64,000 nt of DNA from Ignavibacteriales bacterium (lineage in GTDB: Bacteria > Bacteroidota > Ignavibacteria > UBA10030): positions 8,875 through 72,874 of the forward strand of contig JACPUH010000002.1 in the NCBI GenBank assembly GCA_016192345.1, given 5' to 3'. The translations under genes and the position numbers were made by a program. Shown here one piece after another: positions 10,859-44,822 of the stretch; position 1 is the stretch's first letter; each line of letters begins with the position of its first letter. The notes under the pieces were generated by a model, which was given only the letters and a program-made list of their open reading frames with translations, ran no database searches and was not told where the DNA came from.

Positions 10859-13186
10859 TCAGGCAAATTCCTTTTCCTGCACCGGCTTGGATTTCCCGTT
10901 CCCCCGATCACCCTCACGATGGTTTTTTATTCCCGCCTCGAGCCGTGCCGTCCGCACTTTGCTGACGATGGACAGGAACAGGCCGATGGAAATCAATGTT
11001 GCCGCGACCCATATCAGACTGATGAAGGGCTTGATGCTCGCCTCGATGACAAGCATCTCCGGTCCGGCAGCTTCTTCCGCGTGATCATCCAACCCTGCAA
11101 CCTCAACCTGGATGGAGGAGGTCTTGTTCTCGGGATTAATATTCATGCTCAGCATGGAAAATCCGGTTTTCCCATCCTTCAGCACAGCCGGTTTCACTTC
11201 GGGCTGTTGACCCTCCTTGTACAAGGTCACCGCGGTCACGGTTTCCTTCTTGCCGTCGCGCACAACCTCGAGAACGGCTCCCACGGGAAATCCGCTCGCC
11301 CCTCCCATCATACCTTCCATCCCGTGCTGGTTCATCTCGAAACGGACGAACGTGACCGACATATCACCGATCCTTGTGGCAACACCTTTGGAAAGGTCGA
11401 ACGCATGGTGTTCGTGACCTCCGGCGGTCGCCCGCTCCACCGAGACGGGCTCGATGTAGAAATCCTTCGTCATAAAACTCGCGTAATCCGGATTCCTCAT
11501 GATCTGGTCATTGTAGCTGCTCTTGAACATCACCGGTTCCAGGAGAAACGATCCGCCTTCACGGTCGGCCTTGACGAGAAATTTCCATTTTCCATTCTCC
11601 GTCGGTTGGGAGCCGGTATACGTCAACGTGTAGCCGAGGACCTCCTTCGGCTGACCCTGAGTCAGGGATGTCGTCTCTTTCTGTCCGTAGAATCCTGAAC
11701 CGATGATGCCGAGGAACAGGAGGGCAAGACCGATGTGCGCCATCGGCCCGCCAATCATGAACCAACCCTGTTTGCTTAATCGGTAGCCATGCGTAAGGTT
11801 CACAAAGAATGCAAAGAGGGAAGCAAACGCCAGGAGAGCCATCGACCATTCGTCCAGACCGCTCAACAGGAGGCCGAGGAGAACGAGCCCGGAGGCCCCG
11901 AGGGCAAAGGATGCGCGTTTCATGAGGCCATGTGCCGATTCCTGCCGCCACAGGACCAGGAGGCTGATCCCGAGCACGAAGGCAAGAGCAATGGCTATCG
12001 GCAGGTTCATCCGATCGTAGAACGACGGCTCCACAGTCGAGTTACCGACGATCGGCCAGCTCGTCCCGAAGAAAATAATGATTGCGCTTGCCGCGAGCAC
12101 GGCCGTCATGATGGAGATCAACGATTCGCGGGTCATCATACCAACCTTGCCGGCGAGCGGTTTCAGTTCAGTCCAACGCCGGGCAAGCAGCCCGAAACCA
12201 AGTCCTGCAACGCCCAACAGCCAGGCAACCAGGAGGGTATAGACAAACGATCCCGGATCGGTAAAGGAATGAACGGACGCGGATCCGAGAACACCGCTGC
12301 GGGTAAGAAACGTGCTGTAGACAATGAGGGAGAATGTCAGGATTGCCAGAAAGAAATTGGTGCGCGCAAGATTCCCGGTGAGCTTCTGTACCACGAGTGT
12401 GTGGAGCAGTGCCACGCCGGTGATCCAAGGAATCAACGAGGAATTTTCGACCGGATCCCATCCCCACCATCCTCCCCACCCCAACACGCCATAGGCCCAG
12501 TATCCGCCGATCATGATACCGGCTCCCAGCCAGAGAACGCCGAAAAGGACCCAGGGCAAAGCCTTGGGGATCCACTCACGGAAGGTCTTCTTCCAGAGCG
12601 CCGCAACAGCGAAGCAGAATGGAACCTCCATGGCTGCAAATCCGACGAACAGGACAGGGGGATGGATGATCATCCAGAAATTTTGGAGCAACGGGTTCAG
12701 CCCCTTGCCATCCGCCGGTATCGCCCCAACGGCCATCTGTTCGGGATAGGCATCCCAGATATATTGAAAGGGGGATTTTACAATCAACAGCAACAAGAGG
12801 AACGCCTGAACAAATCCGTACACGGCCATGACTTCAAATTCGACCTTTTGCCGTTGAGTGTATCGCTGCAAGCCGATTCCGATCAGTGTGCTGCACAGGG
12901 CCCAGAACAGGAAGCTCCCCTCCTGCCCGGCCCAGAACGTTGTGATGAGAAGGTGGCTCGGAAGGTCACGGGAACTGTAGCTCCAGATGTAACCATATTC
13001 GAATTGATGACGCAGGATATACATCATCAGCAGAACGGACACCGCCACCACTCCGCCGGCCATAAAGAGAAAGCTTCTCCGCGCCAGGGGTACCAGCATC
13101 TTTCTCGTTGTCGCGCTTTGATAGTATGCGTACGTGGACACGAGGGCTGCCGCAAACGCCATCCAGATAATTACCGTTGCTATCAT
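10859..13186 (-). CDS. ccmF: Cytochrome c biogenesis heme lyase CcmF (System I)
   Basis: FWAGQEGSFLFW, GLNPLLQNFWMIIHPP, WWD motif WAYGVLGWGGWWGWDPVENSSLIPW, TFLTRSG...SVHSF; many TM helices. Confidence 0.95.
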   Translation of the reverse strand: MIATVIIWMAFAAALVSTYAYYQSATTRKMLVPLARRSFLFMAGGVVAVSVLLMMYILRHQFEYGYIWSYSSRDLPSHLLITTFWAGQEGSFLFWALCSTLIGIGLQRYTQRQKVEFEVMAVYGFVQAFLLLLLIVKSPFQYIWDAYPEQMAVGAIPADGKGLNPLLQNFWMIIHPPVLFVGFAAMEVPFCFAVAALWKKTFREWIPKALPWVLFGVLWLGAGIMIGGYWAYGVLGWGGWWGWDPVENSSLIPWITGVALLHTLVVQKLTGNLARTNFFLAILTFSLIVYSTFLTRSGVLGSASVHSFTDPGSFVYTLLVAWLLGVAGLGFGLLARRWTELKPLAGKVGMMTRESLISIMTAVLAASAIIIFFGTSWPIVGNSTVEPSFYDRMNLPIAIALAFVLGISLLVLWRQESAHGLMKRASFALGASGLVLLGLLLSGLDEWSMALLAFASLFAFFVNLTHGYRLSKQGWFMIGGPMAHIGLALLFLGIIGSGFYGQKETTSLTQGQPKEVLGYTLTYTGSQPTENGKWKFLVKADREGGSFLLEPVMFKSSYNDQIMRNPDYASFMTKDFYIEPVSVERATAGGHEHHAFDLSKGVATRIGDMSVTFVRFEMNQHGMEGMMGGASGFPVGAVLEVVRDGKKETVTAVTLYKEGQQPEVKPAVLKDGKTGFSMLSMNINPENKTSSIQVEVAGLDDHAEEAAGPEMLVIEASIKPFISLIWVAATLISIGLFLSIVSKVRTARLEAGIKNHREGDRGNGKSKPVQEKEFA

Positions 13187-13230: not shown

Positions 13231-13246
13231 AGCAATCTTTATGCCA
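13231..13246 (-). promoter_or_regulatory. Sigma54 -24/-12 promoter of ccmF
   Basis: Minus strand TGGCAT-AAAGA-TTGCT, consensus spacing, about 46 nt before ATG 13186. Confidence 0.75.
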
Positions 13247-13420: not shown

Positions 13421-13453
13421 AAAAAAAAGGGAGGCGGTTTCCCGTCTCCCTTT
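13421..13453 (-). terminator. Rho-independent terminator ending the porin-cytochrome operon
   Basis: Minus strand AAAGGGAGACGG-GAAA-CCGCCTCCCTTTTTTTT (one mismatch in the stem), starting 21 nt after the stop at 13475. Confidence 0.7.
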
Positions 13454-13474
13454 CAAGTGAAATCGATAAGGGGG

Positions 13475-14668
13475 TTACGGCTTCCTCATTTCTTCGATGG
13501 AGTCGTTGAGCAACTGAATGGCGTACTGCGGATTATGAATGCCCCCGCTCTTATCGTGTTCGATGAAGAAATAGTTGTACAGAGCGCCGGCCTTGCGAAG
13601 TCCTGCAGGCCCGACGAAAGTCCGCGGACTCGAGCTGCTGGCGCTTGAGGTTCCGTTGTTAGCCTGGACCAACCCGCTGGAACTGAGGATGCCTTTCGCC
13701 TGCAACAGCGTCGCCAGAGTGTCCAGGTATTCGTGGACATATTTATGGGCGCCCATGCCACCTGTCAGTGTACCCGAGGTTCCAACGTAGGTGTCCACAT
13801 TCATGGTGGCATGACATCCGGACTGGCGACAGCCGTTGGTGTTGTAGGCAGTCGTTGTGCCGGAGGGATATCCAATCACGTTCGTATGGCCACCGTTGCC
13901 TCCAGAAACAGGCTGCGCCATATGGCAGGTGGGACATCCACTCTGGGTGATTCCAGACTGCGTGGAGTGCGGTGAATTCACATAGGCCTTGCCCGGAAAT
14001 TCAAAGCCTCCCCCCTTCCCGGCTCCCAGGAACATCAGACCCTGCACACCATAGTGCGGATACCACCGGTTCGTAGTGATTTTGAGTGTATCAGTCGCAC
14101 CCGCGGTCGTCTTCATCTTGGGTGTGAAGCCCGACGAGCGGGGTTGATGGCAGTTCAGGCAAATATTTCCCTTGCCTAAATTGATCGTCTGGTCGGAGAT
14201 CCCTTCCATCGGAGACCAGAGAACAACGCTGGCTTCCGTCCGACGTGAGAAGTCCCCCTTCGAGTGTGGGGAATGACAGGCAAAGCATCCCACCGGGGAG
14301 GGCCTGTACTGGTTTGTCACCACGCTCCAAACCGCCGGCAAAGATTGGGGAGGGAAGCCCGCCTTGGCCCTCTGGACGAATCCTTCGGATGTATGGCAAC
14401 CCGAGCATGGGGCAGTGTTGCGGTCGTCAAACGTTCCGCCGGTGACATGGCCTGCCTGCGCCCATTGGTATTTTACCGCCCAGACATAGTAGGTCGTATC
14501 GATGTCCGGATTGTGGCAATTGCCGCAGTTAATCCCGGGAGCAAACCCTTCGAGATTCACGACCGTTGATTCACCTGACGGTCCTTGCGGCCCTTCCGGT
14601 CCGCGGCAAGCGGACAATGCCATCAGGACCACCGCCACCGTCGAAAGAGCAAGAAATCGTTGAGTCAT
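13475..14668 (-). CDS. Hexaheme lipoprotein cytochrome c (ExtD-like outer-membrane component)
   Basis: Lipobox LSAC, collagen-like GPEGPQGPSG linker, CGNCH, CSGCH, CFACH, CLNCH, CPTCH plus CRQSGCH (CX4CH), C-terminal GIHNP. Confidence 0.85.
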   Translation of the reverse strand: MTQRFLALSTVAVVLMALSACRGPEGPQGPSGESTVVNLEGFAPGINCGNCHNPDIDTTYYVWAVKYQWAQAGHVTGGTFDDRNTAPCSGCHTSEGFVQRAKAGFPPQSLPAVWSVVTNQYRPSPVGCFACHSPHSKGDFSRRTEASVVLWSPMEGISDQTINLGKGNICLNCHQPRSSGFTPKMKTTAGATDTLKITTNRWYPHYGVQGLMFLGAGKGGGFEFPGKAYVNSPHSTQSGITQSGCPTCHMAQPVSGGNGGHTNVIGYPSGTTTAYNTNGCRQSGCHATMNVDTYVGTSGTLTGGMGAHKYVHEYLDTLATLLQAKGILSSSGLVQANNGTSSASSSSPRTFVGPAGLRKAGALYNYFFIEHDKSGGIHNPQYAIQLLNDSIEEMRKP

Positions 14669-14698
14669 ATTGTTTCCTCCTGAGCAATACCGTTCAGA

Positions 14699-15583
14699 TT
14701 AAAATTCAAACTCGCCTGTCCCGATACTGATCTTTCCGTTGATGTGTTTGTTGGTGTTAATAATTTTCATCGATGCATCGACCACCTCTTCGTGGCAACG
14801 GCTGCATGGGGTTGTTGCAAAATCATAAACGGGATGCGTCCCACCCTGGGCCGTCGTTTTTGGCAAAGCCCGCTCTGCCAAGGTCGGCTTCGTCACATCC
14901 CCGTGACAGGTTCCGCAGGCCGCTTGCGTCCCGGAGACATCATTCCAGACCGGAGCAAAATTATTGCCGTTCCTGAAATTCCCGTGGCAATAGGTGTTGG
15001 AACATTTGAGGGTCTGTGGGTCATAGGACGGAGCAGGGGTAGGCTGCGGGAGATACGACCTCGCGAACAGAATATCGGCAGGTGTAACGACTCCGGCGGC
15101 ATCAATGTGACCGGGCGAAGAGACGGACGAAGGAACGGCATGACATTCCGTGCAAGGAGCATTCCTGGAGATTGCGCCCCCCAGCAAGTGCAGCTGGTGC
15201 GCCCCAACAGCCCGGGCCGTGCGCGCGGTATTCCTGCTCAGGTCGCGCGGGGGAGCCGGGTTCACCGTTCCATGGCAGGTGGAACAATTTTCCGGGCCGG
15301 CCGCGTTGGTATGGCATGTCAGGCACGAAGTCTGTGCAATGCCGCCGTCATACCGGGAACCATGACATGTCTGGCAACGCTTCATATCCCAACCCTGGCT
15401 CCGGATTTCCATCCCGTGAAAGTTGGCCGATGCGGGTGTCGTCCAGCCGTCGGGATGCACCTGCAATTCCCCCGTGGAGGGGGCCGGCAGATCCGTCTTC
15501 AGTTCACTGCAGCCGGTCAATCCGAAGGCCACGACAAGCGCCAGAAGGACACCGGAGAGACACACTCTATGCATGCTTTTCAT
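14699..15583 (-). CDS. Heptaheme lipoprotein cytochrome c with Geobacter-type CxxxxCH...CxxCH domain
   Basis: Lipobox LTGC; CQTCH, CLTCH, CSTCH, CTECH, CSNTYCH, CGTCH, CSRCH; CSNTYCH...W...CGTCH and H.NG.I match the CxxxxCH/CxxCH repeat style. Confidence 0.85.
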   Translation of the reverse strand: MKSMHRVCLSGVLLALVVAFGLTGCSELKTDLPAPSTGELQVHPDGWTTPASANFHGMEIRSQGWDMKRCQTCHGSRYDGGIAQTSCLTCHTNAAGPENCSTCHGTVNPAPPRDLSRNTARTARAVGAHQLHLLGGAISRNAPCTECHAVPSSVSSPGHIDAAGVVTPADILFARSYLPQPTPAPSYDPQTLKCSNTYCHGNFRNGNNFAPVWNDVSGTQAACGTCHGDVTKPTLAERALPKTTAQGGTHPVYDFATTPCSRCHEEVVDASMKIINTNKHINGKISIGTGEFEF

Positions 15584-15612
15584 GATCGATCTTCCAGAAC
15601 AGAAGTGACATG

Positions 15613-16851
15613 TTACTTATGGCAATATCCGCAGAAGCCCGTACCCTTCACACCCCCGACACGAGCGTTGGCATCGCTGTGACACGTAAAGCAATTGGCT
15701 CCGGGATCGCTATGCCAGTCGCCGTTCACCCCGGCCATGAATCCGCGGATGTGCGTCTTCGGATCCGTCCCTTTAAACCCGTCGGAATCCATATGGCAGG
15801 TGACACATGTCGGATCAGCGCCCTGAGCGTCATGACAGGAAGCACAGGTTTCCATGTCGCGTCGCGCCAGTTGTGCATGCAAACCGCCACCGGTTCCGAC
15901 GCCAATCGTCACGAATCCCGCCTGCTGATGCGTCGTTGGCTTGAATGTAACTTGATTGACATTTCCCCCTGCGGCGTGACACGTTGCGCAGAATTGTCGC
16001 TGACTGTGACAGGTCTGGCAATCGGCCGCTTTCCCCTGGGCCGCGATGCCGTGGGTGAAACGGAAGTTAAGATCGTGCACCTTCAGGAGCGAGGTCGATT
16101 TGCCGCGGTCCATCGTCATCAATCGGGGCGAGCGCGGAGAGATCGGGTCCCTCCCTGCCAAATCCACCTTTATGAGGTCCGTACCGTTGTGGCAATCGAT
16201 GCATGATTCCTGGGTGTGACAGCTTGCGCAGGACGCAGTGGAAAGCCGTGCGGTCTGTTTATGCTCCCGGACAAAATCAGTTCTGTTATGGTCCACCGGG
16301 CGAAGGCCCGCAAGGTCCGTATGACACGTTTCGCAGGTGTTCGAGGCCTGCACATCATTGTGACACGTATTGCACGTAGCCATGGCGGGAACGAGCGCCC
16401 CTGTGGGCATGCCTTCCTTTTCGAGATTGGTATGGCACGTGACGCAATCCATTTTTTGAACGCCGACATGCGCCTCGTGCGAAAAGACCAGCTCGCGCTG
16501 CGGACTTGCCGCCGCGGCGTAGGTGCTTTGGTCGCTGCTGGTATGGCAATAGGTGCAGTTCTGTGCCAGTTGCTCTTCGTGGCAACTCTGGCAGTTTTCT
16601 TTCTTGGCCAAGAGGTTCTCGGAAGAGAGCTTGCTCGTCGCAGCAGATTCATGGCAGGTGGCACACTCCAGGCCCGCGCCTTCCACATGCAGGGAGTGAG
16701 AGAACCTGATCGCTTTCGGTTGTTCCGGCTGGTCACCGACCTCCCTGGACTTCGTGACCATCGTGAACATAAGGGCGAGGACGCCGGAAATCATGACCAG
16801 CGCATACACCTGCTTCAGCGTCAATAGTCGGATTCGTCGGAGGATAGACAT
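15613..16851 (-). CDS. 14-heme periplasmic cytochrome c (c3-like N-terminus; ExtA-like)
   Basis: N-terminal hydrophobic signal/anchor, FSHSLH and FSHEAH c3/c7-type motifs, 14 CxxCH counted; starts 7 nt after the porin stop. Confidence 0.9.
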   Translation of the reverse strand: MSILRRIRLLTLKQVYALVMISGVLALMFTMVTKSREVGDQPEQPKAIRFSHSLHVEGAGLECATCHESAATSKLSSENLLAKKENCQSCHEEQLAQNCTYCHTSSDQSTYAAAASPQRELVFSHEAHVGVQKMDCVTCHTNLEKEGMPTGALVPAMATCNTCHNDVQASNTCETCHTDLAGLRPVDHNRTDFVREHKQTARLSTASCASCHTQESCIDCHNGTDLIKVDLAGRDPISPRSPRLMTMDRGKSTSLLKVHDLNFRFTHGIAAQGKAADCQTCHSQRQFCATCHAAGGNVNQVTFKPTTHQQAGFVTIGVGTGGGLHAQLARRDMETCASCHDAQGADPTCVTCHMDSDGFKGTDPKTHIRGFMAGVNGDWHSDPGANCFTCHSDANARVGGVKGTGFCGYCHK

Positions 16852-16858
16852 AAGGGGC

Positions 16859-18151
16859 TCAGAAAATATTCAATCGTTCGCTGACAAGAAAACTTCCGCG
16901 CACAAAAAACCTCACATCACTTTGGTAGATCGTATTCTGAATCCATTGGACCTGGGTATCGAGGCCAAGAGCGGGGACCGGCCGGAAGGCAACCCCGATG
17001 GCTGCGCTCAAGGCATCCTCAAGCTTCGAGGCAGATTCACTCAGTTTATACTTTGCATAGCTCAGCAGGAGCGACGGCGTCAGCCTGGCCTCCATCAGCG
17101 GATAGCTGACTTGGGCGGAGGCGGCGCTCAGTTCACCGGCATAGCCCACGTTCCGGGCAAGACTGACGGAAACATATTTTCCGCTCACACCCAGCGTCAC
17201 GCGGTCCGACGATTCGCCATCCCCATAGTCAACCGACCCGTATTTACCGAAGAGCTGCCATGAGGTCATCAGCGCATATTCTGCCCCCACTTCATACTCT
17301 TTCAACGTGTTGAATGTAAAAACCGAGAAGATGGAGTTGTAGGAGATGCGGGGCTCGCGCTGGAGGTATTCTCCCGTAAGACCAAGCGATTCCATCACCT
17401 TGACACGCGTAAAAAACTGGGCGCGCGCCATCTTTTCCGTATCAAAATCATAATCATAGCGGGCATACCCGGAGACAAGGTCTTCATAGTCAACGTTCAC
17501 ATCGCCGCTGAGGTAGCGCTCCGAGCTCGCCATCGGCTTGATTTCAACCAGGTACGGATTAAAGAGCGAGTCGCGTCGGTATGCGCTGTAGGGCTCCGCC
17601 TGAATTGTCCTGTTCATGTAACTGACGGAAACGCGGGCAGCCTCAAGAGGCTCTGCAACAACCTGGGCACCGGCCATCCTGTTATTGCTTTTGTCGCCGA
17701 TCATTTCCGCCTTCGATCCCGGGGGCGGAAGCGCTCCATAGTACCCGACGACCTTGAGCCTGGAATCGAGAAATTTCAGCGAAGCCAACCCACCGTCGAT
17801 GGTCCCGTTTCCCACACCTGCAAAGACCAGCTGCCGTCCGACGCTTACGTTCGCCACATCGAAAATATTGGACCATTTCAGATAGAGATTGTAGAGCCGG
17901 TACTTCGATTCTTCCGCGACGGGTCCACTGAGATCGGTAAAACCGTTGCCGTAGGCATGGAACGAAAGGTCGCCTCCGGTCAATGACAACGAGAGGGAGG
18001 TGTGACCAAAAAGATGATCGGACGAGCGGCCAACGGTGTCCTGGCGCTGCCAGGCGTAGGCCGACGTCACCACCCTGGCCTGAAAGAGCTGGGCCGAAAG
18101 GGTTGAGGTCACAAGTGCTGAAAGGATAAGGAACTGCAGGAGCCTTCGCAT
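16859..18151 (-). CDS. Outer-membrane beta-barrel, porin of a porin-cytochrome complex
   Basis: Signal peptide MRRLLQFLILSALVTSTLSA, alternating hydrophobic beta-strands, C-terminal Phe (...SERLNIF); start at ATG 18151 with GGAGA RBS; about 430 aa. Confidence 0.8.
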   Translation of the reverse strand: MRRLLQFLILSALVTSTLSAQLFQARVVTSAYAWQRQDTVGRSSDHLFGHTSLSLSLTGGDLSFHAYGNGFTDLSGPVAEESKYRLYNLYLKWSNIFDVANVSVGRQLVFAGVGNGTIDGGLASLKFLDSRLKVVGYYGALPPPGSKAEMIGDKSNNRMAGAQVVAEPLEAARVSVSYMNRTIQAEPYSAYRRDSLFNPYLVEIKPMASSERYLSGDVNVDYEDLVSGYARYDYDFDTEKMARAQFFTRVKVMESLGLTGEYLQREPRISYNSIFSVFTFNTLKEYEVGAEYALMTSWQLFGKYGSVDYGDGESSDRVTLGVSGKYVSVSLARNVGYAGELSAASAQVSYPLMEARLTPSLLLSYAKYKLSESASKLEDALSAAIGVAFRPVPALGLDTQVQWIQNTIYQSDVRFFVRGSFLVSERLNIF

Positions 18152-18192
18152 GGTCGTTTCTCCAAAAAATAGAATTCCATCCACACTCCGTT

Positions 18193-18209
18193 TACAACTG
18201 CCGTGCCGA
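18193..18209 (-). promoter_or_regulatory. Candidate sigma54 promoter of the porin-cytochrome operon
   Basis: Minus strand TCGGCAC-GGCAG-TTGTA, about 43 nt before ATG 18151; TTGTA at -12 is the variant seen in E. coli pspA. Confidence 0.5.
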
Positions 18210-18222
18210 CATGCAAAAACCG

Positions 18223-18315
18223 GGAAAACCTCCGAGGTTGTTCAAAAATTCAACAATTTTTCCGGTCCAGTGTAGACCTTTCCTACACCTAAGAAACAAC
18301 CGTGGGAGGTTTTCC
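18223..18315. other. Multi-branched inverted-repeat element between c554 and the porin
   Basis: Outer 11-bp GGAAAACCTCC/GGAGGTTTTCC, inner 7-bp GGTTGTT/AACAACC, enclosing hairpins AAAAATT-CAAC-AATTTTT and GTGTAG...CTACAC. Confidence 0.55.
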
Positions 18316-18343
18316 AGAATAGGGGAATATGGTCCGGTCCGAT

Positions 18344-18889
18344 TTACCCGGCTTTCGGGACCGGATGATGGATCTTCTCCCAGTACTCTTTGAATTTGAA
18401 CTCCTTATAGAACGGACTCTTCGCATTGTGGCATGTTTTGCAGAATGCCTCGATCGCGGCTTCATCCTTGAACTCCGTCAATCCTTCCGCAACAGCTTTC
18501 TCCTTGCTCTTCATGACTGTCATGTTGCGATAGGCTGAACCGGCGCCATGGCATGTTTCGCACTGCACGCCGTCTTTGATATCAAAACCCTTGTCGAGCA
18601 GTTTGGCATCTGCAACCGTGGTATGGCACTCAAGGCACTCTTTGGCTCCTGCCGCCGGCCCAGAGATGCCTTTCGCCTTGGCAACCTCATCGGCTTTTGC
18701 AGTTGTCAAAGTCTTGTAGGCACCGGCATGGGCGCTCTTCATCCATATATCCTTTTGCTTACCTTGTTTCTCCGTCTGGTGACACATAAAGCAAGATTTT
18801 GTCCCTACATACTTCTTCTGCGCGCTTGCCACAGTCGGCACGAGTAAGACGATGGCAACTATCAAGCTGGCAGCATTGATTGTCTTCAT
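18344..18889 (-). CDS. Tetraheme cytochrome c554-family periplasmic protein
   Basis: Signal peptide; YVGTKSCFMCH...W..SAH..AY, CLECH, GVQCETCHGAGSAY, CKTCH. Confidence 0.9.
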   Translation of the reverse strand: MKTINAASLIVAIVLLVPTVASAQKKYVGTKSCFMCHQTEKQGKQKDIWMKSAHAGAYKTLTTAKADEVAKAKGISGPAAGAKECLECHTTVADAKLLDKGFDIKDGVQCETCHGAGSAYRNMTVMKSKEKAVAEGLTEFKDEAAIEAFCKTCHNAKSPFYKEFKFKEYWEKIHHPVPKAG

Positions 18890-18954: not shown

Positions 18955-20298
18955 CTATGATGAGGTGGCACCTCTTCCCGGCAAATAGCTGTGAATCCGC
19001 TCTTCCACTTCTCTAAGCCCATGAGTTCGACCCTCTTCAATCTCCCATATCGAGATAAGGGGGAAGAACTTCGAGAACAGCATGAATCCCATGACGAAAG
19101 CTGATATCCCGCCTGCAAAGAGCGCCCATTCGAGGATGGTCGGCACATAAATTCCGGCAGGAAGGTCGAGCCGCGGGTTTGCGAGAGATGGTACGACGAT
19201 AATCAGGCGCTCCAGCCACATCCCGATCACAACGGCGACTGAAGCAATGAACATGCCCTTAATCGTCCGGAGTCTTCGGAAACTGAGTATGATGAGAGGA
19301 AGCACAAAATTGCACAAGACCATTCCCCAGAAGTAGAAGGCAAAAGGCCCTGTAAACTTGTACATAATGATATGCATTTCGTGCGGTTCTGCTCCGAACA
19401 CACCTGTCAGGTATTCTGAAAAAGTGAAATAGAACCAGATGATGGACATGATGAGGAGCAGCGTACTCAAGTACCGAAAATGAATTTCCTTCAAATACTC
19501 TTCAAGGTGGTACGCCCTCCGGAAGGCTATCATGACGATCATCAATGCTGCGATCCCGGAGAAGATTGCGCCCACGACGAAATAGGGGCCGAAGATCGTG
19601 CTGTGCCAGCCTGGCTGAAGCGTCATGGAGAAGATATACGATATCACCGTGTGAACCGAGATCGCGATGGGAATGACCATGATCATCAGAATATTAATTG
19701 CGCGGTTCAACACCCGTTGTTGGTGCTCCGTGCCGGTCCACCCCCATGCCATAATCGAATAAAGCCATGTGAGTTTCCCCCCCCGATCACGAATTCTCGC
19801 GATGTCGGGTATCATGGGCAAATACAAATAGACCGTGCTTGCTGTGAAGTAGGCGGTAATACTCGTAACGTCCCACAAGAGCGGTGATTGTAATCGTCCG
19901 GCAGTGAAGAGATTGAGCATTCTATCGGGCCGCCCGAGGTCAAGGATAGGATGCAACCCGCCGATGGCAAGGACGATGGCTGTAATAACTTCCGCCATGC
20001 GTGTGATGGGGCGCCGCCATTCCGCCTTTGAAAGTCTTAGAATTGCGGAAATCAGCGTGCCCGCATGGCTAATGCCGATGAAAAACACAAAATTGACGAT
20101 GTAGAATCCCCACGTGACCGGCTGATTCATCCCGGTCAGTCCCAGTCCGAACCACACCTGGGTGACATACATGTACAAAGCCCAGAGAAAAATGATCCCG
20201 AGGATTCCAAACGCGACGTAGAACCCCGTGCCTGTCTCGTAGATGGGCCTGAAAAGGGCTTCGTCGCGATCCTGCGCTGCGGTCGGTTTTGTTTTCAT
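18955..20298 (-). CDS. NrfD/PsrC family quinone-site membrane subunit (ActC-like sequence) of the Qrc/ACIII-related complex
   Basis: [58 protein letters not shown]; about 10 TM helices. Confidence 0.9.
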   Translation of the reverse strand: MKTKPTAAQDRDEALFRPIYETGTGFYVAFGILGIIFLWALYMYVTQVWFGLGLTGMNQPVTWGFYIVNFVFFIGISHAGTLISAILRLSKAEWRRPITRMAEVITAIVLAIGGLHPILDLGRPDRMLNLFTAGRLQSPLLWDVTSITAYFTASTVYLYLPMIPDIARIRDRGGKLTWLYSIMAWGWTGTEHQQRVLNRAINILMIMVIPIAISVHTVISYIFSMTLQPGWHSTIFGPYFVVGAIFSGIAALMIVMIAFRRAYHLEEYLKEIHFRYLSTLLLIMSIIWFYFTFSEYLTGVFGAEPHEMHIIMYKFTGPFAFYFWGMVLCNFVLPLIILSFRRLRTIKGMFIASVAVVIGMWLERLIIVVPSLANPRLDLPAGIYVPTILEWALFAGGISAFVMGFMLFSKFFPLISIWEIEEGRTHGLREVEERIHSYLPGRGATSS

Positions 20299-20984
20299 GA
20301 CCCGGTTCTTCTGGCTAAGTAGTATACTTTTGGTTTGACACCGAGATCTTCCCCGTACCGATACACGCGATAGCTGCGGGAGAGACGTGAGACGTCGCTG
20401 TCTCTGTTTTCAATGTCCCCGAAAACGATGGCGTCTGCCGGACAACTCTCCAGGCAGGCAGGAACATATTCCCCGTCACGAATCTGGCGATCTTCGATGT
20501 CCGCATTTTCTTTTACCTTCTGCAATCGGTGCGAACAGAAGGAGCACTTTTCGACTACGCCAACCATCCGTCGGGAAACATCGGGATTACCGACGTCGGA
20601 GGCTCCCTCAATCCATTTGGGGTCGTACCAATTGAACGACTTGGCAGTGAACGGACAGGCGGCCATGCAATAGCGGCAGCCGATGCACCGGTGATAAATC
20701 TGGGCCACAAGTCCCTCCGGATTGCGATACGTTGCACCAACGGGACACACTAGAGTGCAGGGGGGATCATCACAATGAAAGCACGGTTTCGGAACTCGCT
20801 TCACATGGGTGTTGGGATAATCCCCCTCGACTGTCGTCATCATGTCCATCCAAACCATGGCGCGGCCATTCCGGGCCTCTTCCGGATCGACGATGGGGAT
20901 ATTGTTCTCCATTTTGCAGGCCACGCTGCATGCCCCGCAGCCTGTACACTTGTCGAGATCAATCACCATTGCCCACTTTGGCAT
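20295..20984 (-). CDS. 4x[4Fe-4S] subunit (NrfC/PsrB/QrcC-like)
   Basis: CTGCGACSVAC, CFHCDDPPCTLVCP, CIGCRYCMAACP, CSFC...PACLESCP; start MPKWAMVIDLDKC at ATG 20984 with AAAGGAG RBS. Confidence 0.92.
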   Translation of the reverse strand: MPKWAMVIDLDKCTGCGACSVACKMENNIPIVDPEEARNGRAMVWMDMMTTVEGDYPNTHVKRVPKPCFHCDDPPCTLVCPVGATYRNPEGLVAQIYHRCIGCRYCMAACPFTAKSFNWYDPKWIEGASDVGNPDVSRRMVGVVEKCSFCSHRLQKVKENADIEDRQIRDGEYVPACLESCPADAIVFGDIENRDSDVSRLSRSYRVYRYGEDLGVKPKVYYLARRTGS

Positions 20985-21001
20985 ATCAGCACTCCTTTGT
21001 T

Positions 21002-23452
21002 CTAGGCAGCCGGAGAGATTTTGACCTTTGTTGCCTGCAAGGCAGGTTTCCCACTCACCATATCGTACAAATTCTTCATAATCACATTGGGATTCGTGCC
21101 GTGCCCTTTTGCATAGCGGCCCATCGATGTATGTCCAAGCCCGAACGGAACTGCGATGACATTTGGCATGATTCCTTCGGTGGTCTTCGCCCTGGCCCGG
21201 ATGGTGCCCATGGTCGACTGAACCAGGACCCACTGCCCATCAGTAATTCGATACGAGGCCGCGGTTTCCGGATGTATCTCGACCCAACTTTCCCAATGTC
21301 TGTGAATGGCATGCCCAAACATCTCCTGCATCATCGGAAGCGACGCGCCCTGGCCGTCCCTGACAGGCAAAACACGAAACGTGATCAGGTGAAGGGGCAT
21401 ATCAGGGTCATACCGAACGGGCTCGTGATGCGGAAGGAACACATTGTCCCCGCGTGCCGAAATGTTCAATTCGTTAAGGATGCGCTCCCGGTTCTGGGCA
21501 GAGCCGGTTTTCCCTTGTTGTGCGACAAGAGTATCGATGGCTTCTTTGAGCTTCTGCGAAAAGAATTCGAATCTGTTCGAACGCGTTTGAAAAACCTGAT
21601 CCCATCGTTTCTGTTTTCGAATCGGGTTCCACCACCCCCCTTGCTTCACCAGCCGATCCCAGAACTCATCGAACGAATCGTATTGCCCTATCTGCCAGCC
21701 CCGCTGCTGGAGGTATTGAATCCACATCGTGCCAACCCCCTCCGAGACAATAGATCCGGTGCCCGACAGGTACACACCCTTTAAGGCATTTCTTAATTCG
21801 TGTTCATAGGAATCGAACTGAAATGCTCGGGCGACCGATCCACCAATTCTCTTTGCGAGATTCATAAAAACGTCGCCGCTCTGTTTCGTGTCATACAGGG
21901 GAGAGACAACCGGATGCTGGATCCCAACGTGTGTGAATCCTACGGTTCCCACGTTTGATACTTCGTCCCACCGTTCCATGAAGTGATGGTCGGGAAGAAC
22001 GATATGGGCATGTTCGCTCGTTTCATTGAGCAACGTATCCAAGCTGATCACGAGCGGTATTTTCCGAAGCGCGTCCGCCAGTTCGCGGTGATTTGGCGAT
22101 TGGAACAGAGGATTGCCCCCGTACAGAAACAAGACGCTGATCGGATAGGGGGAGCCATCGAGAATGTTCCTGGTAAACGATTCTATCGAGAATTGTGTCA
22201 CTGGAAATGTACTGGCATTCGGCTGACCGATAGGAATCTGACCTAACCCCGCGCGGGCAATCGCATCAATGCCTGCCACTCCGGATTTCGTGAATGGCGG
22301 ATCATCGACAAAAAAGAGCCCGCCTTTCTTTTCAAAATTACCCAGTAGAGCGTTCAGACTGTGCACCGCCATTGCGGCAAACGTACCGTTCGTATTATCG
22401 ACTGTTCCCTGGTCACCCATGACAAGTGCCGGGCCGGTATTGCCCAGTTCACGGCCAAGTCGAAGGATGGTCGAGCTGGGAACACCCGTCAGCTCTTCAA
22501 CTTTTTCCGGATAGTAGTTTCCGAGAACCATGTTTTTGAAACCAACTTGTCTCGTTCCGGAGCTGTCAACGCGATCTTCGAAGCCGAACGAATGGTCGCG
22601 GACAAATCCCTTGTCATACAATTCTTCACGAATAAGAATATACGCAAGGCCGAGCGCCAGAGCTCCGTACGTTCCGGGCCGGATCGGGATCCATTGATCA
22701 GCATTTCCTGCCGTGAGGCTCAACCGGGATTCAATCTGCACGTAACGCGTCCGCTGTTCTTCGTGGTGACTGTACAACTTCGTGTAGTAGATCGGGGAAT
22801 ATCCTTCTTCGAGAAAATTCGCTCCAAAGCTCACGACGAGCCGCGCGTTGAGGATGTCATAGGCCGGGACGGTGGAGTGTCCGTGAAGGAGCGAGTAGGG
22901 GACGGTGTTGTTTTGGGCAGAGGAGAATTGATAATAATTCGGTGAGCCATACACCTGCATAAAGCGGCGGATGTGTTCCTTCATGAGACCGTTCTCTTCG
23001 TTACCCAGGAATGCCACCTCATGCGCTTTCCCCGCGTTGCGAAGATCCAGCAATCGGTCTTTGACCATCGTGAGGGCCTCATCCCAGCTCATGGAATCCC
23101 ATTTCCCGCTGCCGATTGCCCCGGTTCGCTTCATCGGCCCTTTGAGGCGGTCCGGATGATAGAGAGAATGCAGAGCGTTAAGGCCTAACGGGCACAAGCC
23201 ACCCCTATTGACCGGGTAGACCGGATTGCCTTTTATCGAAACCGGAATTCCGTCGATAAGACGAACACGGAGACCGCAGCCTGCCGGGCACAGACCGCAA
23301 ATGGTGTTTTGCCACGTTTCGATCTTTGGTCCGTTCTTCGCCCTCTCCAGCAATTCCTCTGGGACAGCGATGACGTCATCCAGGTTGCCGAACAAGACTG
23401 CTCCGGAAACACCGCCGAAGAATTTTAAAAAATCACGCCGCTTGATTTCCAT
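21002..23452 (-). CDS. Tat-exported molybdopterin-oxidoreductase-fold subunit (QrcB/ActB1-like)
   Basis: RRDFLK Tat motif; CGLCPAGC...GGLCPLG FS0 motif; molydopterin-binding C-terminal domain (WVEIHPETAA...GLGH); no Cys seen near the expected Mo-ligand segment. Confidence 0.85.
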   Translation of the reverse strand: MEIKRRDFLKFFGGVSGAVLFGNLDDVIAVPEELLERAKNGPKIETWQNTICGLCPAGCGLRVRLIDGIPVSIKGNPVYPVNRGGLCPLGLNALHSLYHPDRLKGPMKRTGAIGSGKWDSMSWDEALTMVKDRLLDLRNAGKAHEVAFLGNEENGLMKEHIRRFMQVYGSPNYYQFSSAQNNTVPYSLLHGHSTVPAYDILNARLVVSFGANFLEEGYSPIYYTKLYSHHEEQRTRYVQIESRLSLTAGNADQWIPIRPGTYGALALGLAYILIREELYDKGFVRDHSFGFEDRVDSSGTRQVGFKNMVLGNYYPEKVEELTGVPSSTILRLGRELGNTGPALVMGDQGTVDNTNGTFAAMAVHSLNALLGNFEKKGGLFFVDDPPFTKSGVAGIDAIARAGLGQIPIGQPNASTFPVTQFSIESFTRNILDGSPYPISVLFLYGGNPLFQSPNHRELADALRKIPLVISLDTLLNETSEHAHIVLPDHHFMERWDEVSNVGTVGFTHVGIQHPVVSPLYDTKQSGDVFMNLAKRIGGSVARAFQFDSYEHELRNALKGVYLSGTGSIVSEGVGTMWIQYLQQRGWQIGQYDSFDEFWDRLVKQGGWWNPIRKQKRWDQVFQTRSNRFEFFSQKLKEAIDTLVAQQGKTGSAQNRERILNELNISARGDNVFLPHHEPVRYDPDMPLHLITFRVLPVRDGQGASLPMMQEMFGHAIHRHWESWVEIHPETAASYRITDGQWVLVQSTMGTIRARAKTTEGIMPNVIAVPFGLGHTSMGRYAKGHGTNPNVIMKNLYDMVSGKPALQATKVKISPAA

Positions 23453-23467
23453 AGCAACTCCGGTGTA

Positions 23468-23995
23468 TCATCGGTGGCAGGTGAGACAGTCGTTGGAAAC
23501 GTTGTTCTCGCGATGGCACTGCATGCAATTCTCCATCGTGATGGGAAGAAACTGGGAAGCAACGGGTTCGGTGAATCCGGATACATCGCCATGGCACGCC
23601 TTGCACTCGAGCCCTGCCTTGGTGACGTGACGCCGGTGGGAAAAATAGACATGGTCGGGCACATGATACACGCGCTGCCAGAGAATCAACTCCTCCTTCT
23701 TTACGAACTCGAGCAGTTTCACCTCTTCAGCCGACTGCGAGAGTGGTTGATCCGAGTGGCAGGTGCTGCAGACTTCGAGACTTGGAATCGAGGCGCTGGA
23801 AGAGGTCAGAACGGATGCGTGACAGTCGGTGCAGGTCATGCCGGCCGTTTCCATGTGAGCTTTGTGACTATAACGGATGGGCTGGGTTACGATGTCTCCT
23901 GAAGTTGAGGCAAGATAGACAACGACGACAATGAGTATACCAGCGGCAGCGCCGGCGCGTACCGTCCATTTCACAAAGGGTGTCATACTCTTCAT
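23468..23995 (-). CDS. Membrane-anchored pentaheme cytochrome c (QrcA/ActA-like)
   Basis: N-terminal TM; QPIRYSHKAH, CTDCH, CSTCH, PDHVYFSHRRH, CKACH, MENCMQCH, CLTCH. Confidence 0.9.
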   Translation of the reverse strand: MKSMTPFVKWTVRAGAAAGILIVVVVYLASTSGDIVTQPIRYSHKAHMETAGMTCTDCHASVLTSSSASIPSLEVCSTCHSDQPLSQSAEEVKLLEFVKKEELILWQRVYHVPDHVYFSHRRHVTKAGLECKACHGDVSGFTEPVASQFLPITMENCMQCHRENNVSNDCLTCHR

Positions 23996-24031
23996 GAGGC
24001 TGCCTCAGGTTGAGGGTTCGGACAAATGACG

Positions 24032-25189
24032 TTAGTTCTTTGAGACCTTCCGGAGATAGCTGTAAAGATCTCGCATCTCGGTGAGTGAAAGTTCCGGCCA
24101 TCGCTTGTTTTGCGTGACAAGCATATCTTCCATGTCACCGGCATGATTCCACATAAGTTGGATCATGCGAACGGGAGTGTTCATTTTCTTTACAGATCGA
24201 AGATCCGGTCCTTTGCCCTGACCGCCCCCATGGCAGCTGACACACCCTTTCTCGTTGAACGTGACTTTTCCCCGCTCGGAATTCCCTTCTTTATCTTCAA
24301 ATCCCAGGAAATACACATAGGCGATGATATCCGCCATTTCGTTTTTGTCGAACCGCGGCCATTCGATAGACTCTTTTTGCATATGCTGGAGCATCAACTG
24401 TCCATGATTCCACATCGCGCTCGCCACCTCCGTCACGCCTTTCTTCAGATCGATCTTCACAAGACCTGCTTCTATTCGCTTCCGCTTCCCCTCACCGACG
24501 TGACAGGTGGAGCATCGCTTTTCGTCGAAGAGTTCTCGTCCCCTCTTCGGGTTGCCGACCGAGAGCCGGACCTCTACGTCCGCCGTACTTGCCTGGCGCA
24601 AATACGCCGCAATGTCGACGACATCTCGACCGCTCAGCATCGGATATTTCATTTTGCCTTTTGTGATCTGCTCTTGCATCGCTGGTCCATGGTTCCACAT
24701 AGCCTGTACCAAATAGAGTGGAGCAGAATAACGCTGAATCGTTTTGAAATCAGGACCAGTAGTTCCGCCTTGGCCCCCGACAGCATGGCACGCGATGCAA
24801 CCTTTTGAGTTCAGTACGCTCCTTCCGTTTGCAACGCTGCCCGGTTCTCCCAAATATCGGAGATAGTACAGGAAGCCGAGAAGATCGAGCATTTCACCCT
24901 CGGTGAGCTGAGGACGATCCATGCGGAGCAGCCGGAATTTCCTGTTCATTTGCGGTGCGTGATTCCAAATGACGGACGCTAATTCCAGGGCGCTTCCAAA
25001 ATACTGATCACGGCTTAAGTCGGGCCCCGCTGTTCCTCCGTACCCGCCGATCATATGACATGCGATGCATTTCTTCTCTTCAAAGACAATCCGTCCGTTC
25101 AGAGGATCAGTTGGCAATTCAATTTCCTGGGCTTGAAGAGTCCCGGCAAGGAGGATGACGGACAGTGCGATTAGCTCTCGAATGCGCAT
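24032..25189 (-). CDS. Periplasmic cytochrome c with four class I monoheme domains
   Basis: Signal peptide MRIRELIALSVILLAGTLQA; four G..(F/L)..K.CxxCH units (CIACH, CIACH, CSTCH, CVSCH), each followed by WNHx(3)M. Confidence 0.88.
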   Translation of the reverse strand: MRIRELIALSVILLAGTLQAQEIELPTDPLNGRIVFEEKKCIACHMIGGYGGTAGPDLSRDQYFGSALELASVIWNHAPQMNRKFRLLRMDRPQLTEGEMLDLLGFLYYLRYLGEPGSVANGRSVLNSKGCIACHAVGGQGGTTGPDFKTIQRYSAPLYLVQAMWNHGPAMQEQITKGKMKYPMLSGRDVVDIAAYLRQASTADVEVRLSVGNPKRGRELFDEKRCSTCHVGEGKRKRIEAGLVKIDLKKGVTEVASAMWNHGQLMLQHMQKESIEWPRFDKNEMADIIAYVYFLGFEDKEGNSERGKVTFNEKGCVSCHGGGQGKGPDLRSVKKMNTPVRMIQLMWNHAGDMEDMLVTQNKRWPELSLTEMRDLYSYLRKVSKN

Positions 25190-25220
25190 ATCACTTCTCC
25201 TCTGTCTTTGATGTGGATGA

Positions 25221-25469
25221 CTATGTCTTCTTGTGCAATCCGACAAAAACAAATGTTAGGATGGAAGCGAGGGTGATGAAGATGGGAATTGCGACAATAC
25301 TGATTGCCACGGATGCCCCAGGAGCATCGTTGAGGTCAACGGCAAGCAGGATGAGGTTGATAATCCAAAGGGTGATTGCTACCACAAAGACCCAGATAAA
25401 GAGAACGCTGAAAATCTGGGCTACGAGAATGGCTTTCTCCGCGATCGAGCTTGGCTGGTCGTTGCTCAT
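25221..25469 (-). CDS. Small two-TM membrane protein, first gene of the Qrc/ACIII-related operon
   Basis: 82 aa, two hydrophobic helices, AGGAGG upstream, directly after a sigma54 element. Confidence 0.65.
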   Translation of the reverse strand: MSNDQPSSIAEKAILVAQIFSVLFIWVFVVAITLWIINLILLAVDLNDAPGASVAISIVAIPIFITLASILTFVFVGLHKKT

Positions 25470-25505: not shown

Positions 25506-25522
25506 CGCAAGAAGCGTGCCAA
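25506..25522 (-). promoter_or_regulatory. Sigma54 -24/-12 promoter of the Qrc/ACIII-related operon
   Basis: Minus strand TTGGCAC-GCTTC-TTGCG, near-perfect consensus, 38 nt before ATG 25469. Confidence 0.85.
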
Positions 25523-42612: not shown

Positions 42613-44091
42613 TCAATAGGATTTCATTGTTCCTTGGCGCTCCTCGGCCTGCTTCTTCCAGCGAGGGAGGACGGTCTGAAAAAACTCTTCTTTTTGCAGG
42701 GTGAGTTTCTTCATGTCCAATCCGATATAGGCCTGGGCTTTCGACTTTGTGGAAATATCGGGAAGAGGGAGTGGTTCCGTGATACCCCTCTTGGCAAGGA
42801 CACGGGCAAGATGAAGCCTCGCCTGCTCGGCTTTTTGAATAGAGGAACCGAGTACACGGGCAGCTTCCACCGGTGAATGGAATCCGAGTCCGTTGGAAGC
42901 CGCCACCCAATCCCACCGCCATTGGGCATGACGAATCAACTGCAAGGCCGGTTTCATTTCCTGTTCTGTCGCCCCCTTGTCCCATACGGCCTTGGCTTCG
43001 ATGTGTGCCCGGACAATGGCATCCTCAGCCCGCATCCTTAACTCCAGAATTTTTCCCTGCCGGTCATTGACGCTTTTGGTCAGTGTGGCTTCGCTCTCGC
43101 GGTGGCAGACCTGGCATGACCCGGCAATATCATTGAGGGGGCTTTGGATCTTGTGATTGGTGAACTTGACACCTCCCTCATTCCGGTACGGCATATGGCA
43201 ATCGGCGCAGGAGATGCCCCGCTCGGCATGAATGCCGGTTTTGAAGAGTTCATAGTCGGGGTGCTGCGCCTTGAGCATCGGCGCACGGCTGAGAGCGTGA
43301 ACCCAATCGACGTGTTGAACGGAATCGAAATAAACCTCCATGCTGTCCGCACTGAATCCTTTATCCCAGGGAAATGTGAGATACTTCTCCTCTTTGCCCT
43401 TGAAATAATACTCCACATGACATTGGGCGCAGACATAGGAGCGCATCTCCTGAAGCGTTGCTTTCCGGATATCGACCCCCTGCCGCTGCATCGCCTCGAC
43501 CAGCGCCGGACGCGTCACCCGCAGGTTCATCGTCTCAGGATCATGGCAATCCTGGCAGCCGATGTTGTTCACCACCTGGGAGCCGAGACTATCCCAACTC
43601 CCTTTATAGAATTCGGCCGGCCCCATCTCCGCCATCAGGCGCGGGACGTCGGTGCTCTTGCAGGTCCAGCAGGTTGCAGGTTGAGCGACCCCGGTCCGAA
43701 GCGTGGTCCGAATGTCCTCGATGGCGTAGTAATGCCCGCGGGCCTGTTCATACTCCCGTGAGAAAGCGTACCCGGCCCACAGGATCACAAGGTTGGGATC
43801 CTCGGCAAGATAATCGCGCCAGGAGCCTCCGGCGTACATGCTCCGGAACGAAGTATCGAGCGTGCTTCTATACGATTCGAACTCCCGCGGAAAATTTTCA
43901 CCCCACACCTCGTTTCGCGGCTCCCATGTCGCAATCGGCTTCACAAGCTGGAAAGCAAGCCGCGCTTCCTGGCGGCGCTCCATGATGGATGCGCCGAAAA
44001 GCCCAACAAGGAAAACGACGACTACCGTACCGATAAAAAGGGCCCACGCAACCCAGGGGTTTTCCTGAATAAGATCGACGACGCGTTTCAT
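42613..44091 (-). CDS. nrfA: Ammonia-forming cytochrome c nitrite reductase
   Basis: Catalytic CWTCK, CQDCH, CAQCHVEYYF, KAQHPDYE, CADCHMP, CQVCH, WRWDW...GFH; N-terminal TM. Confidence 0.97.
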   Translation of the reverse strand: MKRVVDLIQENPWVAWALFIGTVVVVFLVGLFGASIMERRQEARLAFQLVKPIATWEPRNEVWGENFPREFESYRSTLDTSFRSMYAGGSWRDYLAEDPNLVILWAGYAFSREYEQARGHYYAIEDIRTTLRTGVAQPATCWTCKSTDVPRLMAEMGPAEFYKGSWDSLGSQVVNNIGCQDCHDPETMNLRVTRPALVEAMQRQGVDIRKATLQEMRSYVCAQCHVEYYFKGKEEKYLTFPWDKGFSADSMEVYFDSVQHVDWVHALSRAPMLKAQHPDYELFKTGIHAERGISCADCHMPYRNEGGVKFTNHKIQSPLNDIAGSCQVCHRESEATLTKSVNDRQGKILELRMRAEDAIVRAHIEAKAVWDKGATEQEMKPALQLIRHAQWRWDWVAASNGLGFHSPVEAARVLGSSIQKAEQARLHLARVLAKRGITEPLPLPDISTKSKAQAYIGLDMKKLTLQKEEFFQTVLPRWKKQAEERQGTMKSY

Positions 44092-44104
44092 AAGATCCCT
44101 TTGT

Positions 44105-44743: not shown

Positions 44744-44822
44744 GAATGCCGTTCCGACCGGAGGAGCGACCCGACATCTCTGTGGGCGCGGTCGGTCCAT
44801 TCCGACGAAAACAATCTAAATT

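Follow-up and report, generated by a model that had tools for sequence, protein, structure and literature searches.

We analysed a 64,000-nucleotide window of an Ignavibacteriales genome (contig JACPUH010000002.1, positions 8,875 to 72,874), in which a compact cluster of minus-strand genes had been described in an initial annotation, made from the letters alone, as a four-part porin-cytochrome conduit resembling ExtABCD of Geobacter. Four open reading frames fill positions 13475–18151, separated by intergenic gaps of 7, 29 and 30 nucleotides, and encode in order of transcription an outer-membrane β-barrel protein, a 14-haem c-type cytochrome and two haem-bearing lipoproteins (Table 1). The barrel of about 430 residues with a terminal phenylalanine, the 14-haem gene starting 7 nucleotides later and the two lipobox cytochromes with seven and six haem sites were all recovered as first described, with CX4CH sites counted among the haem motifs, and 14, 7 and 6 such motifs are far above chance for proteins of these sizes. 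The terminator said to close the operon also withstood analysis: its hairpin has a folding energy of −22.1 kcal/mol (z = −2.9), 0 of 200 shuffled sequences were equally stable, and it runs directly into eight T residues. A simple scanner overlooked this terminator because of one A·C mismatch in the stem. The locus is a genuine four-gene operon that joins a barrel, a 14-haem cytochrome and two lipoproteins carrying haem.

Table 1. Coordinates of the operon, its flanking signals and adjacent cytochrome-related genes within the 64,000-nucleotide window
Feature	Position	Strand	Details
Outer-membrane β-barrel	16859–18151	−	430 residues (410 mature); assigned by reading of the sequence and AlphaFold2 model
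14-haem c-type cytochrome	15613–16851	−	412 residues, 14 CXXCH
Heptahaem lipoprotein	14699–15583	−	294 residues, lipobox LTGC, 6 CXXCH and 1 CX4CH
Hexahaem lipoprotein	13475–14668	−	397 residues, lipobox LSAC, 5 CXXCH and 1 CX4CH
Intrinsic terminator	13421–13454	−	GGGAGACGG-GAAA-CCGCCTCCC-T8, hairpin closing the operon
Sigma-54-like −24/−12 element, candidate operon promoter	18193–18208	−	CGGCACGGCAGTTGTA, about 42 nucleotides upstream of the barrel ATG
Tetrahaem c554-like cytochrome, periplasmic	18344–18889	−	181 residues, 4 CXXCH, signal cleavage ASA/Q, PF13435 E = 6e-15
CcmF/NrfE-family haem lyase	10859–13186	−	775 residues, Pfam and NCBIfam matches, own promoter region

The barrel and its 14-haem partner

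We compared the operon with 89 loci that encode a relative of the barrel, 9 from genomes and 80 from metagenomes, counting each neighbour among those loci with enough sequence to show it and the lipoproteins among the 46 loci with at least 4.2 kilobases downstream. A 14-haem orthologue lies directly after the barrel in 57 of 57 loci and holds 14 CXXCH motifs in 56 of the 57. For every component, close homologues belong to metagenome-assembled genomes labelled Ignavibacteriales, Ignavibacteriae or Bacteroidota, and the barrel and 14-haem proteins also occur together in KSB1 and Candidatus Handelsmanbacteria, where the barrel is 27% and the 14-haem protein 37–39% identical to those of the window, the latter being about 395 residues long and still holding 14 CXXCH motifs. 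The KSB1 locus (L092:3979-8581) has the gene order c554, CxxxxCH lipoprotein, barrel, 14-haem cytochrome, and in the Handelsmanbacteria locus (L091:4384-8581) genes for a PhoU-like protein and a PHO4 phosphate transporter stand between the barrel and the 14-haem cytochrome. Retention of the pair at 27% barrel identity marks it, as judged by sequence comparison, as an old and coherent unit.

Translation of the barrel starts at an ATG preceded at 8 nucleotides by GGAGA. An alternative in-frame GTG at 18184 would extend the protein by 11 residues to 441, and homologues align from the ATG, not from this GTG. The protein has a signal peptide ending in LSA/Q, lacks cysteine altogether and closes with the residues NIF. 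Its family is large: over 780 close relatives were counted, and a profile search gave 394 clusters at 50% identity, nearly all of them 400–460 residues long. The barrel gave no Pfam match at E ≤ 0.01, no NCBIfam match and no solved Protein Data Bank (PDB) structure by profile search; the sole matches in these library searches, to calreticulin, are at chance level (E ~1) and were discarded. Barrels of this Ignavibacteria type have no family model and are annotated as 'hypothetical protein'.

An AlphaFold2 model built on a 68-sequence alignment predicts an all-β structure with confidence (mean predicted local distance difference test score, pLDDT, 85.4; predicted template modelling score, pTM, 0.73). 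Secondary-structure assignment with DSSP yields 26 strand elements, two of which (269–273 and 276–279) form a short, low-confidence hairpin within a 17-residue loop. The strand count that the initial annotation had suggested as a check accordingly comes to 24 membrane strands, or 22 if the six-residue strands at 188–204 do not span the membrane, and strand residues alternate between hydrophobic and polar as expected. Loops are 3–6 residues long except for three, and a plug domain is absent, such that the predicted fold is large and plug-less and not the narrow or plugged transporter that had been named as an argument against a conduit. The best neighbours in a Foldseek comparison are the 24-strand ushers FimD and PapC (template modelling score, TM-score, 0.5–0.59 on the query), followed lower down by the 18-strand channels OprD and AlgE, with chitoporin also listed. 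Standard barrel geometry, not measurement on the model, gives a Cα diameter of roughly 4 nm for 24 strands, in the same size range as the Mtr sheath. Being wide and without a plug, such a barrel would leave an open hole in the membrane if nothing occupied it.

Conservation mapped onto the model is higher for lumen-facing than for lipid-facing residues (0.81 versus 0.70), with the lumen ahead in 20 of 24 strands. Two motifs outside the strands are near-invariant, RRDSLFNPY (190–200) and EPRISYNSIFSVF (266–278), and both are candidate contact sites for a cytochrome; the EPRISYNSIFSVF segment has a pLDDT below 50 despite its conservation and is left unplaced by the model. We set aside charge complementarity between lumen and cytochrome as an argument, as the lumen is near neutral with 19 lysine or arginine and 18 aspartate or glutamate residues.

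These features bear on whether the barrel could be a plain solute channel, encoded alongside periplasmic cytochromes in one operon and forming no physical complex with them. Weak porin-type Pfam matches on some barrel relatives (PF13505 and PF13609), the UniRef label 'alginate export domain' on one distant relative and the presence of OprD, AlgE and chitoporin among the Foldseek matches are the kind of signals that such a channel would leave. Its neighbourhood and predicted shape point the other way: the gene adjoins the same 14-haem family in every one of the 57 loci and the pairing spans three phyla, the gap between barrel and cytochrome genes is only 7 nucleotides, the model has short loops with neither a constriction loop nor a plug, and the lumen is better conserved than the lipid face. 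We consider a solute channel scarcely credible, and a barrel that houses a cytochrome the far better account.

The 14-haem protein, whose ATG lies 7 nucleotides past the barrel stop, has sequence features that would suit an electron-transfer wire. All 14 CXXCH motifs are invariant in 60 homologues together with 12 further histidine residues and Met157, and these invariant residues suffice as ligands for haems that would be predominantly bis-histidine-coordinated, low-spin and devoted to electron transfer. The protein is built of c7/c3-type units, as indicated by Pfam matches to c7, c3 and MtrC domain II/IV models, and packs one haem into about 27 residues, close to the 25 residues per haem of the MtrA wire. 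Its sequence matches in the PDB are a c7-repeat cytochrome of the Geobacter type and the alternative complex III subunit ActA.

Two lipoprotein cytochromes and the proposed outer end

The lipoproteins differ from the core pair in how they are inherited. A lipoprotein of the heptahaem protein's CxxxxCH family follows the 14-haem gene in 46 of 46 loci; the hexahaem gene is also present in 26 of these, and in the other 20 a single larger lipoprotein with 7+2, 11+2, 5+2 or 6+3 haems takes the place of the two. Identity to the proteins of the window is about 57–59% for the barrel and the 14-haem cytochrome and about 35–45% for the lipoproteins. Divergence and exchange of the lipoproteins while the barrel and periplasmic parts stay conserved is what would be expected of exposed parts, and in Geobacter conduits, too, inner parts are conserved and outer parts are swapped (Otero et al. 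2018, PMC6148476).

Lipoboxes and haem sites are conserved in both proteins. The heptahaem lipoprotein has its CX4CH site as CSNTYCH and passes the TIGR01904 CxxxxCH/CxxCH model (46 bits against a cutoff of 27). Its lipid-bearing cysteine opens a motif, C-S-[DE]-L-K-x-[DE]-L-P, that is conserved in 120 homologues, with serine at +2 and an acidic residue at +3, resembling the Bacteroidetes lipoprotein surface-export signals SDDDD and SDDFE. In the hexahaem lipoprotein the CX4CH site is CRQSGCH, six haem sites and six further histidine residues are invariant in eight of eight orthologues, and orthologues pass the cutoff of the MtrC/MtrF domain II/IV model PF22113. A C-terminal helical segment matches weakly the C-terminus of NrfA and octahaem nitrite reductase (ONR). 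We rejected a catalytic role of the NrfA/ONR kind as the principal function: the invariant second histidine on all six haems means that there is no obvious open coordination site, which favours electron transfer over catalysis. We propose that the heptahaem protein is a surface cytochrome and the hexahaem protein the outermost one.

The 14-haem protein might instead span the barrel by itself, with its end as the only redox site at the surface and both lipoproteins facing the periplasm as electron collectors or storage haems. Shi et al. 2014 (PMC4245776) allow that periplasmic cytochromes with 12–14 haems could cross the membrane without an outer cytochrome, the Handelsmanbacteria locus consists of barrel and 14-haem cytochrome with no lipoprotein cytochrome gene adjacent or elsewhere in view, and the match of the heptahaem protein to an export signal is partial. 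A lipoprotein cytochrome is nevertheless present in all 46 Ignavibacteria-type loci and in KSB1, the lipoproteins evolve faster and are swapped in the manner of exposed parts, and acidic residues near the heptahaem lipid cysteine are conserved. Together these observations make periplasm-facing lipoproteins very improbable and favour lipoproteins at the cell surface.

Directly after its lipid cysteine the hexahaem protein carries a collagen-like run of three Gly-X-Y triplets at residues 21–33 (RGPEGPQGPSGE, containing GPEGPQGPSGE), which the initial annotation had viewed as a spacer that could help display the haem domain at the surface. Such a run is present in 26–27 of 28 hexahaem orthologues and varies from two to about nine triplets (L005, L023, L026 and L083 among others); the longer versions score 16–23 bits against the PF01391 Collagen model, below its threshold of 27. 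A search of the paper library found nothing that joins collagen-like repeats with multihaem cytochromes, and the conserved run may be a small new detail of these proteins. It may be a mere extended linker, as first suggested. It is doubtful, though conceivable from the repeat pattern, that the run forms a true collagen-like triple helix, in which case the hexahaem protein would be a lipid-anchored trimer with 18 haems on a rigid stalk. Were that so, triplet number would set the standoff of the terminal haems from the outer membrane, which would come to about 2.5 nm at this locus and extend to about 7 nm in some relatives, and the run would be a spacer of adjustable length with which to get to minerals across the surface layer.

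Upstream genes and the direction of electron flow

Immediately upstream of the barrel, 65 of 73 loci encode a tetrahaem c554-like cytochrome, whatever precedes it, and we consider this protein probably the periplasmic electron donor to the conduit. At the present locus the c554-like gene is the final gene of the upstream operon, and the minus strand continues upstream with a module of NrfD, iron–sulphur, Mo-fold and pentahaem proteins and a module of Rieske, cytochrome b and 11-haem proteins with an ImcH-like cytochrome. The genes before c554 differ among relatives: Rieske/cytochrome b/11-haem genes in 35 loci, and sometimes a Mo-fold/iron–sulphur/NrfD module, as here, or an ImcH-like gene alone. 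The operon that ends in c554 is of the Mo-fold/iron–sulphur/NrfD type at the present locus and of the Rieske/cytochrome b type in most relatives. In L001, an 87%-identical relative, the 11-haem gene leads straight to c554 (L001:7640-9808) with no Mo-fold module, whereas a multihaem/Mo-fold/iron–sulphur/NrfD module lies between these two genes at the present locus (18955–25252, minus strand) and in L010, L034, L048, L056 and L060. In L060 two c554 genes stand in tandem. Because the Mo-fold/iron–sulphur/NrfD module is variably present, the inner-membrane module that feeds the conduit looks exchangeable.

We propose that the locus encodes a trans-outer-membrane electron conduit of the porin-cytochrome type, a reading to which we assign a probability of about 0.78. 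Inner-membrane quinol-oxidising modules encoded just upstream, mostly Rieske/cytochrome b with the 11-haem protein in relatives and here also Mo-fold/iron–sulphur/NrfD, would reduce the soluble tetrahaem c554-like cytochrome, which would in turn serve as donor to the 14-haem cytochrome; the haem chain of the latter is predicted to lie inside the plug-less barrel of 22–24 strands and to project into the periplasm. At the outer rim the chain would hand electrons to the heptahaem and then the hexahaem lipoprotein, and these to extracellular acceptors that are insoluble or large, for example Fe(III) and Mn(IV) oxides, humic substances or electrodes. The tight operon with its terminator, a haem density like that of MtrA and a barrel of usher-like shape support this reading, and the plug-less barrel model, the unbroken adjacency of barrel and 14-haem genes and the conserved lipoboxes and haem sites favour the conduit put forward in the initial annotation. 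In addition, anodes and Fe(III)-reducing environments harbour Ignavibacteria with such clusters, and Melioribacter is itself a reducer of Fe(III).

The same complex could run inward: extracellular Fe(II), reduced humics or a syntrophic partner would supply electrons, which would pass through c554 to periplasmic or inner-membrane reductases, and in one variant electrons could be driven uphill through the Rieske/cytochrome b complex. Porin-cytochrome conduits work both ways, with inward flow supported for Mto and Pio homologues; the Rieske/cytochrome b complex that is the upstream partner in 35 loci is also used by Fe(II) oxidisers; the window further encodes nitrate and nitrite respiration, namely a nitrate reductase with alternative complex III and NrfAH; and the source is groundwater, with the sequence carried by groundwater metagenomes. 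We favour outward flow because one or two surface cytochromes are encoded without exception, in 46 of 46 loci, where Fe(II)-oxidising conduits usually have none, and because ImcH-like and CbcL-like quinol oxidases of the metal-reducer type lie nearby. Moreover, the cultured relatives that bear this type of cluster, Melioribacter and Ignavibacterium, are organotrophs, the former a reducer of Fe(III). We judge inward operation unlikely on this evidence, as we do a reversible role coupled to the nitrate and nitrite reductases of the same island, and an outward conduit the better account.

Several observations temper confidence in an outward conduit. The conduit family is a kind recognised from genomes, and the direction of electron flow is not fixed by sequence. 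A search for RNA sequencing evidence of co-transcription turned up no RNA run with the sequence, which occurs only in DNA runs from groundwater, soil and sediment. Sequence comparison links the barrel neither to MtrB nor to any solved structure, and the AlphaFold2 model of the 14-haem protein (60-sequence alignment) is unusable, with a pLDDT of 48.5 and a pTM of 0.33. Residues 1–95 of the 14-haem protein, including a hydrophobic helix, align with anchored cytochromes of the ActA/QrcA type (PDB 8k9e, 6f0k and 6lod; NF041781), and in most family members this helix ends in T-x-S-R-E without a clear A-x-A/Q, which is found in a few members and in the KSB1 orthologue. The helix is either a signal peptide or else an anchor of the signal type, and because it resembles ActA/QrcA anchors and most members are without a clear cleavage site, the protein may have an inner-membrane tether instead of being free. 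Finally, the export-signal-like motif of the heptahaem lipoprotein is a partial match to a signal whose function is unproven in Ignavibacteria.

Downstream, a CcmF-like gene follows the conduit genes in 44 of 46 loci. The CcmF/NrfE-like lyase encoded here has about 240 extra C-terminal residues and is a possible maturation factor for the conduit cytochromes, perhaps dedicated to their CX4CH sites. The same respiratory island also includes other cytochrome modules and a nitrite ammonification pair, nrfA (with the active-site motif CWTCK) and nrfH, at 42613–44800 on the minus strand; NrfA (42613–44091) contains a CXXCK site, for which a special lyase is required.

The sigma-54-type element thought to open the operon fared less well than the terminator that closes it. 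Against the consensus TGGCAC-N5-TTGCW, CGGCACGGCAGTTGTA has two mismatches, and a scan at two mismatches returned 47 matches in the window where 30 are expected by chance; the element alone is therefore not significant as a motif. It is present, and comparable elements occupy the equivalent position in four of nine relatives (L001, L002, L006 and L007), one of the four with a perfect GGCAC-N5-TTGC core; the remaining five (L003–L005, L008 and L009) have no comparable element at the position upstream of the barrel. We regard it as weak evidence and as the weakest of the observations made initially. Two other sigma-54-type sites in the window, with one mismatch each, are nearer the consensus than CGGCACGGCAGTTGTA: TGGCATAAAGATTGCT (13231–13246, minus strand) precedes the ccmF-like gene, and TGGCACGCTTCTTGCG (25506–25521, minus strand) precedes the Mo-fold/Qrc-like operon. 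No gene for an enhancer-binding protein was found among the open reading frames of the window that were scanned. A long inverted repeat at 18212–18330 on the minus strand (GGAAAACCTCC...GGAGGTTTTCC), located after the c554 stop and before the barrel promoter region, encloses a second hairpin, is followed by a T-rich stretch and is kept in L001; it probably terminates the upstream operon or else forms a regulatory RNA structure.

Comparison with known conduits

Porin-cytochrome conduits enable bacteria to respire minerals, humics and electrodes, and conduits of the Ignavibacteria type abound in soils, peat, sediments and aquifers. In the Shewanella complex MtrCAB (structure 6R2Q), a haem wire sits in a wide barrel and is capped by a surface lipoprotein cytochrome, with 26 strands and about 700 residues in MtrB and 10 haems in MtrA. 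The present system would work on the same wire-in-barrel principle, and its hexahaem orthologues pass the MtrC/MtrF domain II/IV model. Membership of the Mtr/Mto/Pio type was rejected, since the barrel does not match PF11854 (MtrB_PioB) and the 14-haem cytochrome scores 17.3 bits with TIGR03508 (DmsE/MtrA), whose cutoff is 192.2. A fused cytochrome-porin of the Cyc2 kind was likewise dismissed: the barrel is without any cysteine and hence has no fused CXXCH.

ExtABCD (GSU2645-2642), the comparison drawn in the initial annotation, is needed for electrode respiration and consists of a periplasmic cytochrome with 12 haems (ExtA), a barrel with 18 predicted strands (ExtB) and cytochromes with 5 (ExtC) and 12 haems (ExtD), components that are unlike each other and unlike OmcB (Otero et al. 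2018, PMC6148476). The four-part design of periplasmic multihaem protein, barrel and two lipoprotein cytochromes is shared, as a likeness of design and not as shown homology. The likeness stops there: the order here is barrel, 14, 7 and 6, the haem counts are 14/7/6 versus 12/5/12, the barrel has 22–24 strands versus 18, and the phylum is another. The Geobacter sulfurreducens complex OmbB-OmaB-OmcB, the only porin-cytochrome conduit for which biochemistry has demonstrated electron transfer through a bilayer, has a similar design, with a small porin-like barrel, a periplasmic multihaem protein and a lipoprotein multihaem cytochrome, and differs in having 8 periplasmic and 12 outer haems where the present locus has 14 and 7 + 6. 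Published hidden Markov model searches group Ignavibacteria porins with OmbB and not with ExtB or ExtE, and later surveys report OmbB-like porin-cytochrome conduit (pcc) clusters in Ignavibacteria metagenome-assembled genomes and in Melioribacter.

A counterpart nearer than ExtABCD is the pcc cluster of Ignavibacterium album JCM 16511, which according to Shi, Fredrickson & Zachara 2014 (PMC4245776) comprises a periplasmic c-type cytochrome (IALB_1840), a porin-like protein (IALB_1839), a 400-residue periplasmic cytochrome with 14 haem motifs (IALB_1838) and a c-type cytochrome of the outer membrane (IALB_1837). That text notes an atypical CX(3-15)CH motif in IALB_1837 and describes the I. album porin and cytochrome as only 'distantly related to the rest', the rest being the Geobacter groups. 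As far as this description reaches, the two loci share gene order, a 14-haem protein of about 400 residues (412 here) directly after the porin, an atypical motif in the outer cytochrome (here CSNTYCH and CRQSGCH), a periplasmic c-type cytochrome gene upstream of the porin, and the phylum. The correspondence is one of descriptors and phylum, not of measured sequence identity, and the I. album name is absent from three homologue lists and one cluster look-up. A second, hexahaem lipoprotein is present here and is not mentioned for I. album in the text consulted. The genes named in the pcc definition given there are present at this locus: a barrel gene, an adjoining multihaem gene and, in the two lipobox proteins, genes for predicted outer-membrane multihaem cytochromes. 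The I. album descriptors match one for one. We would file the locus among the pcc clusters of the Ignavibacteria type, a kind already described from the I. album genome in 2014, of which it is a good new example and not a discovery.

Relative to genome surveys, our analysis adds a confident model of a plug-less barrel with 22–24 strands and the finding that barrel and 14-haem cytochrome form a strictly co-inherited core extending to KSB1 and Handelsmanbacteria. It further adds that the outer end comes in two versions, either a pair of lipoproteins with 7 + 6 haems or a single larger one, that the tetrahaem donor is fixed and that the inner-membrane quinol modules are interchangeable. A hidden Markov model of the barrel paired with the 14-haem protein offers a target for annotation, and the cultured carriers Melioribacter and Ignavibacterium offer targets for experiments on a conduit that shares its four-part plan with ExtABCD and its gene order with the cluster of I. 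album.

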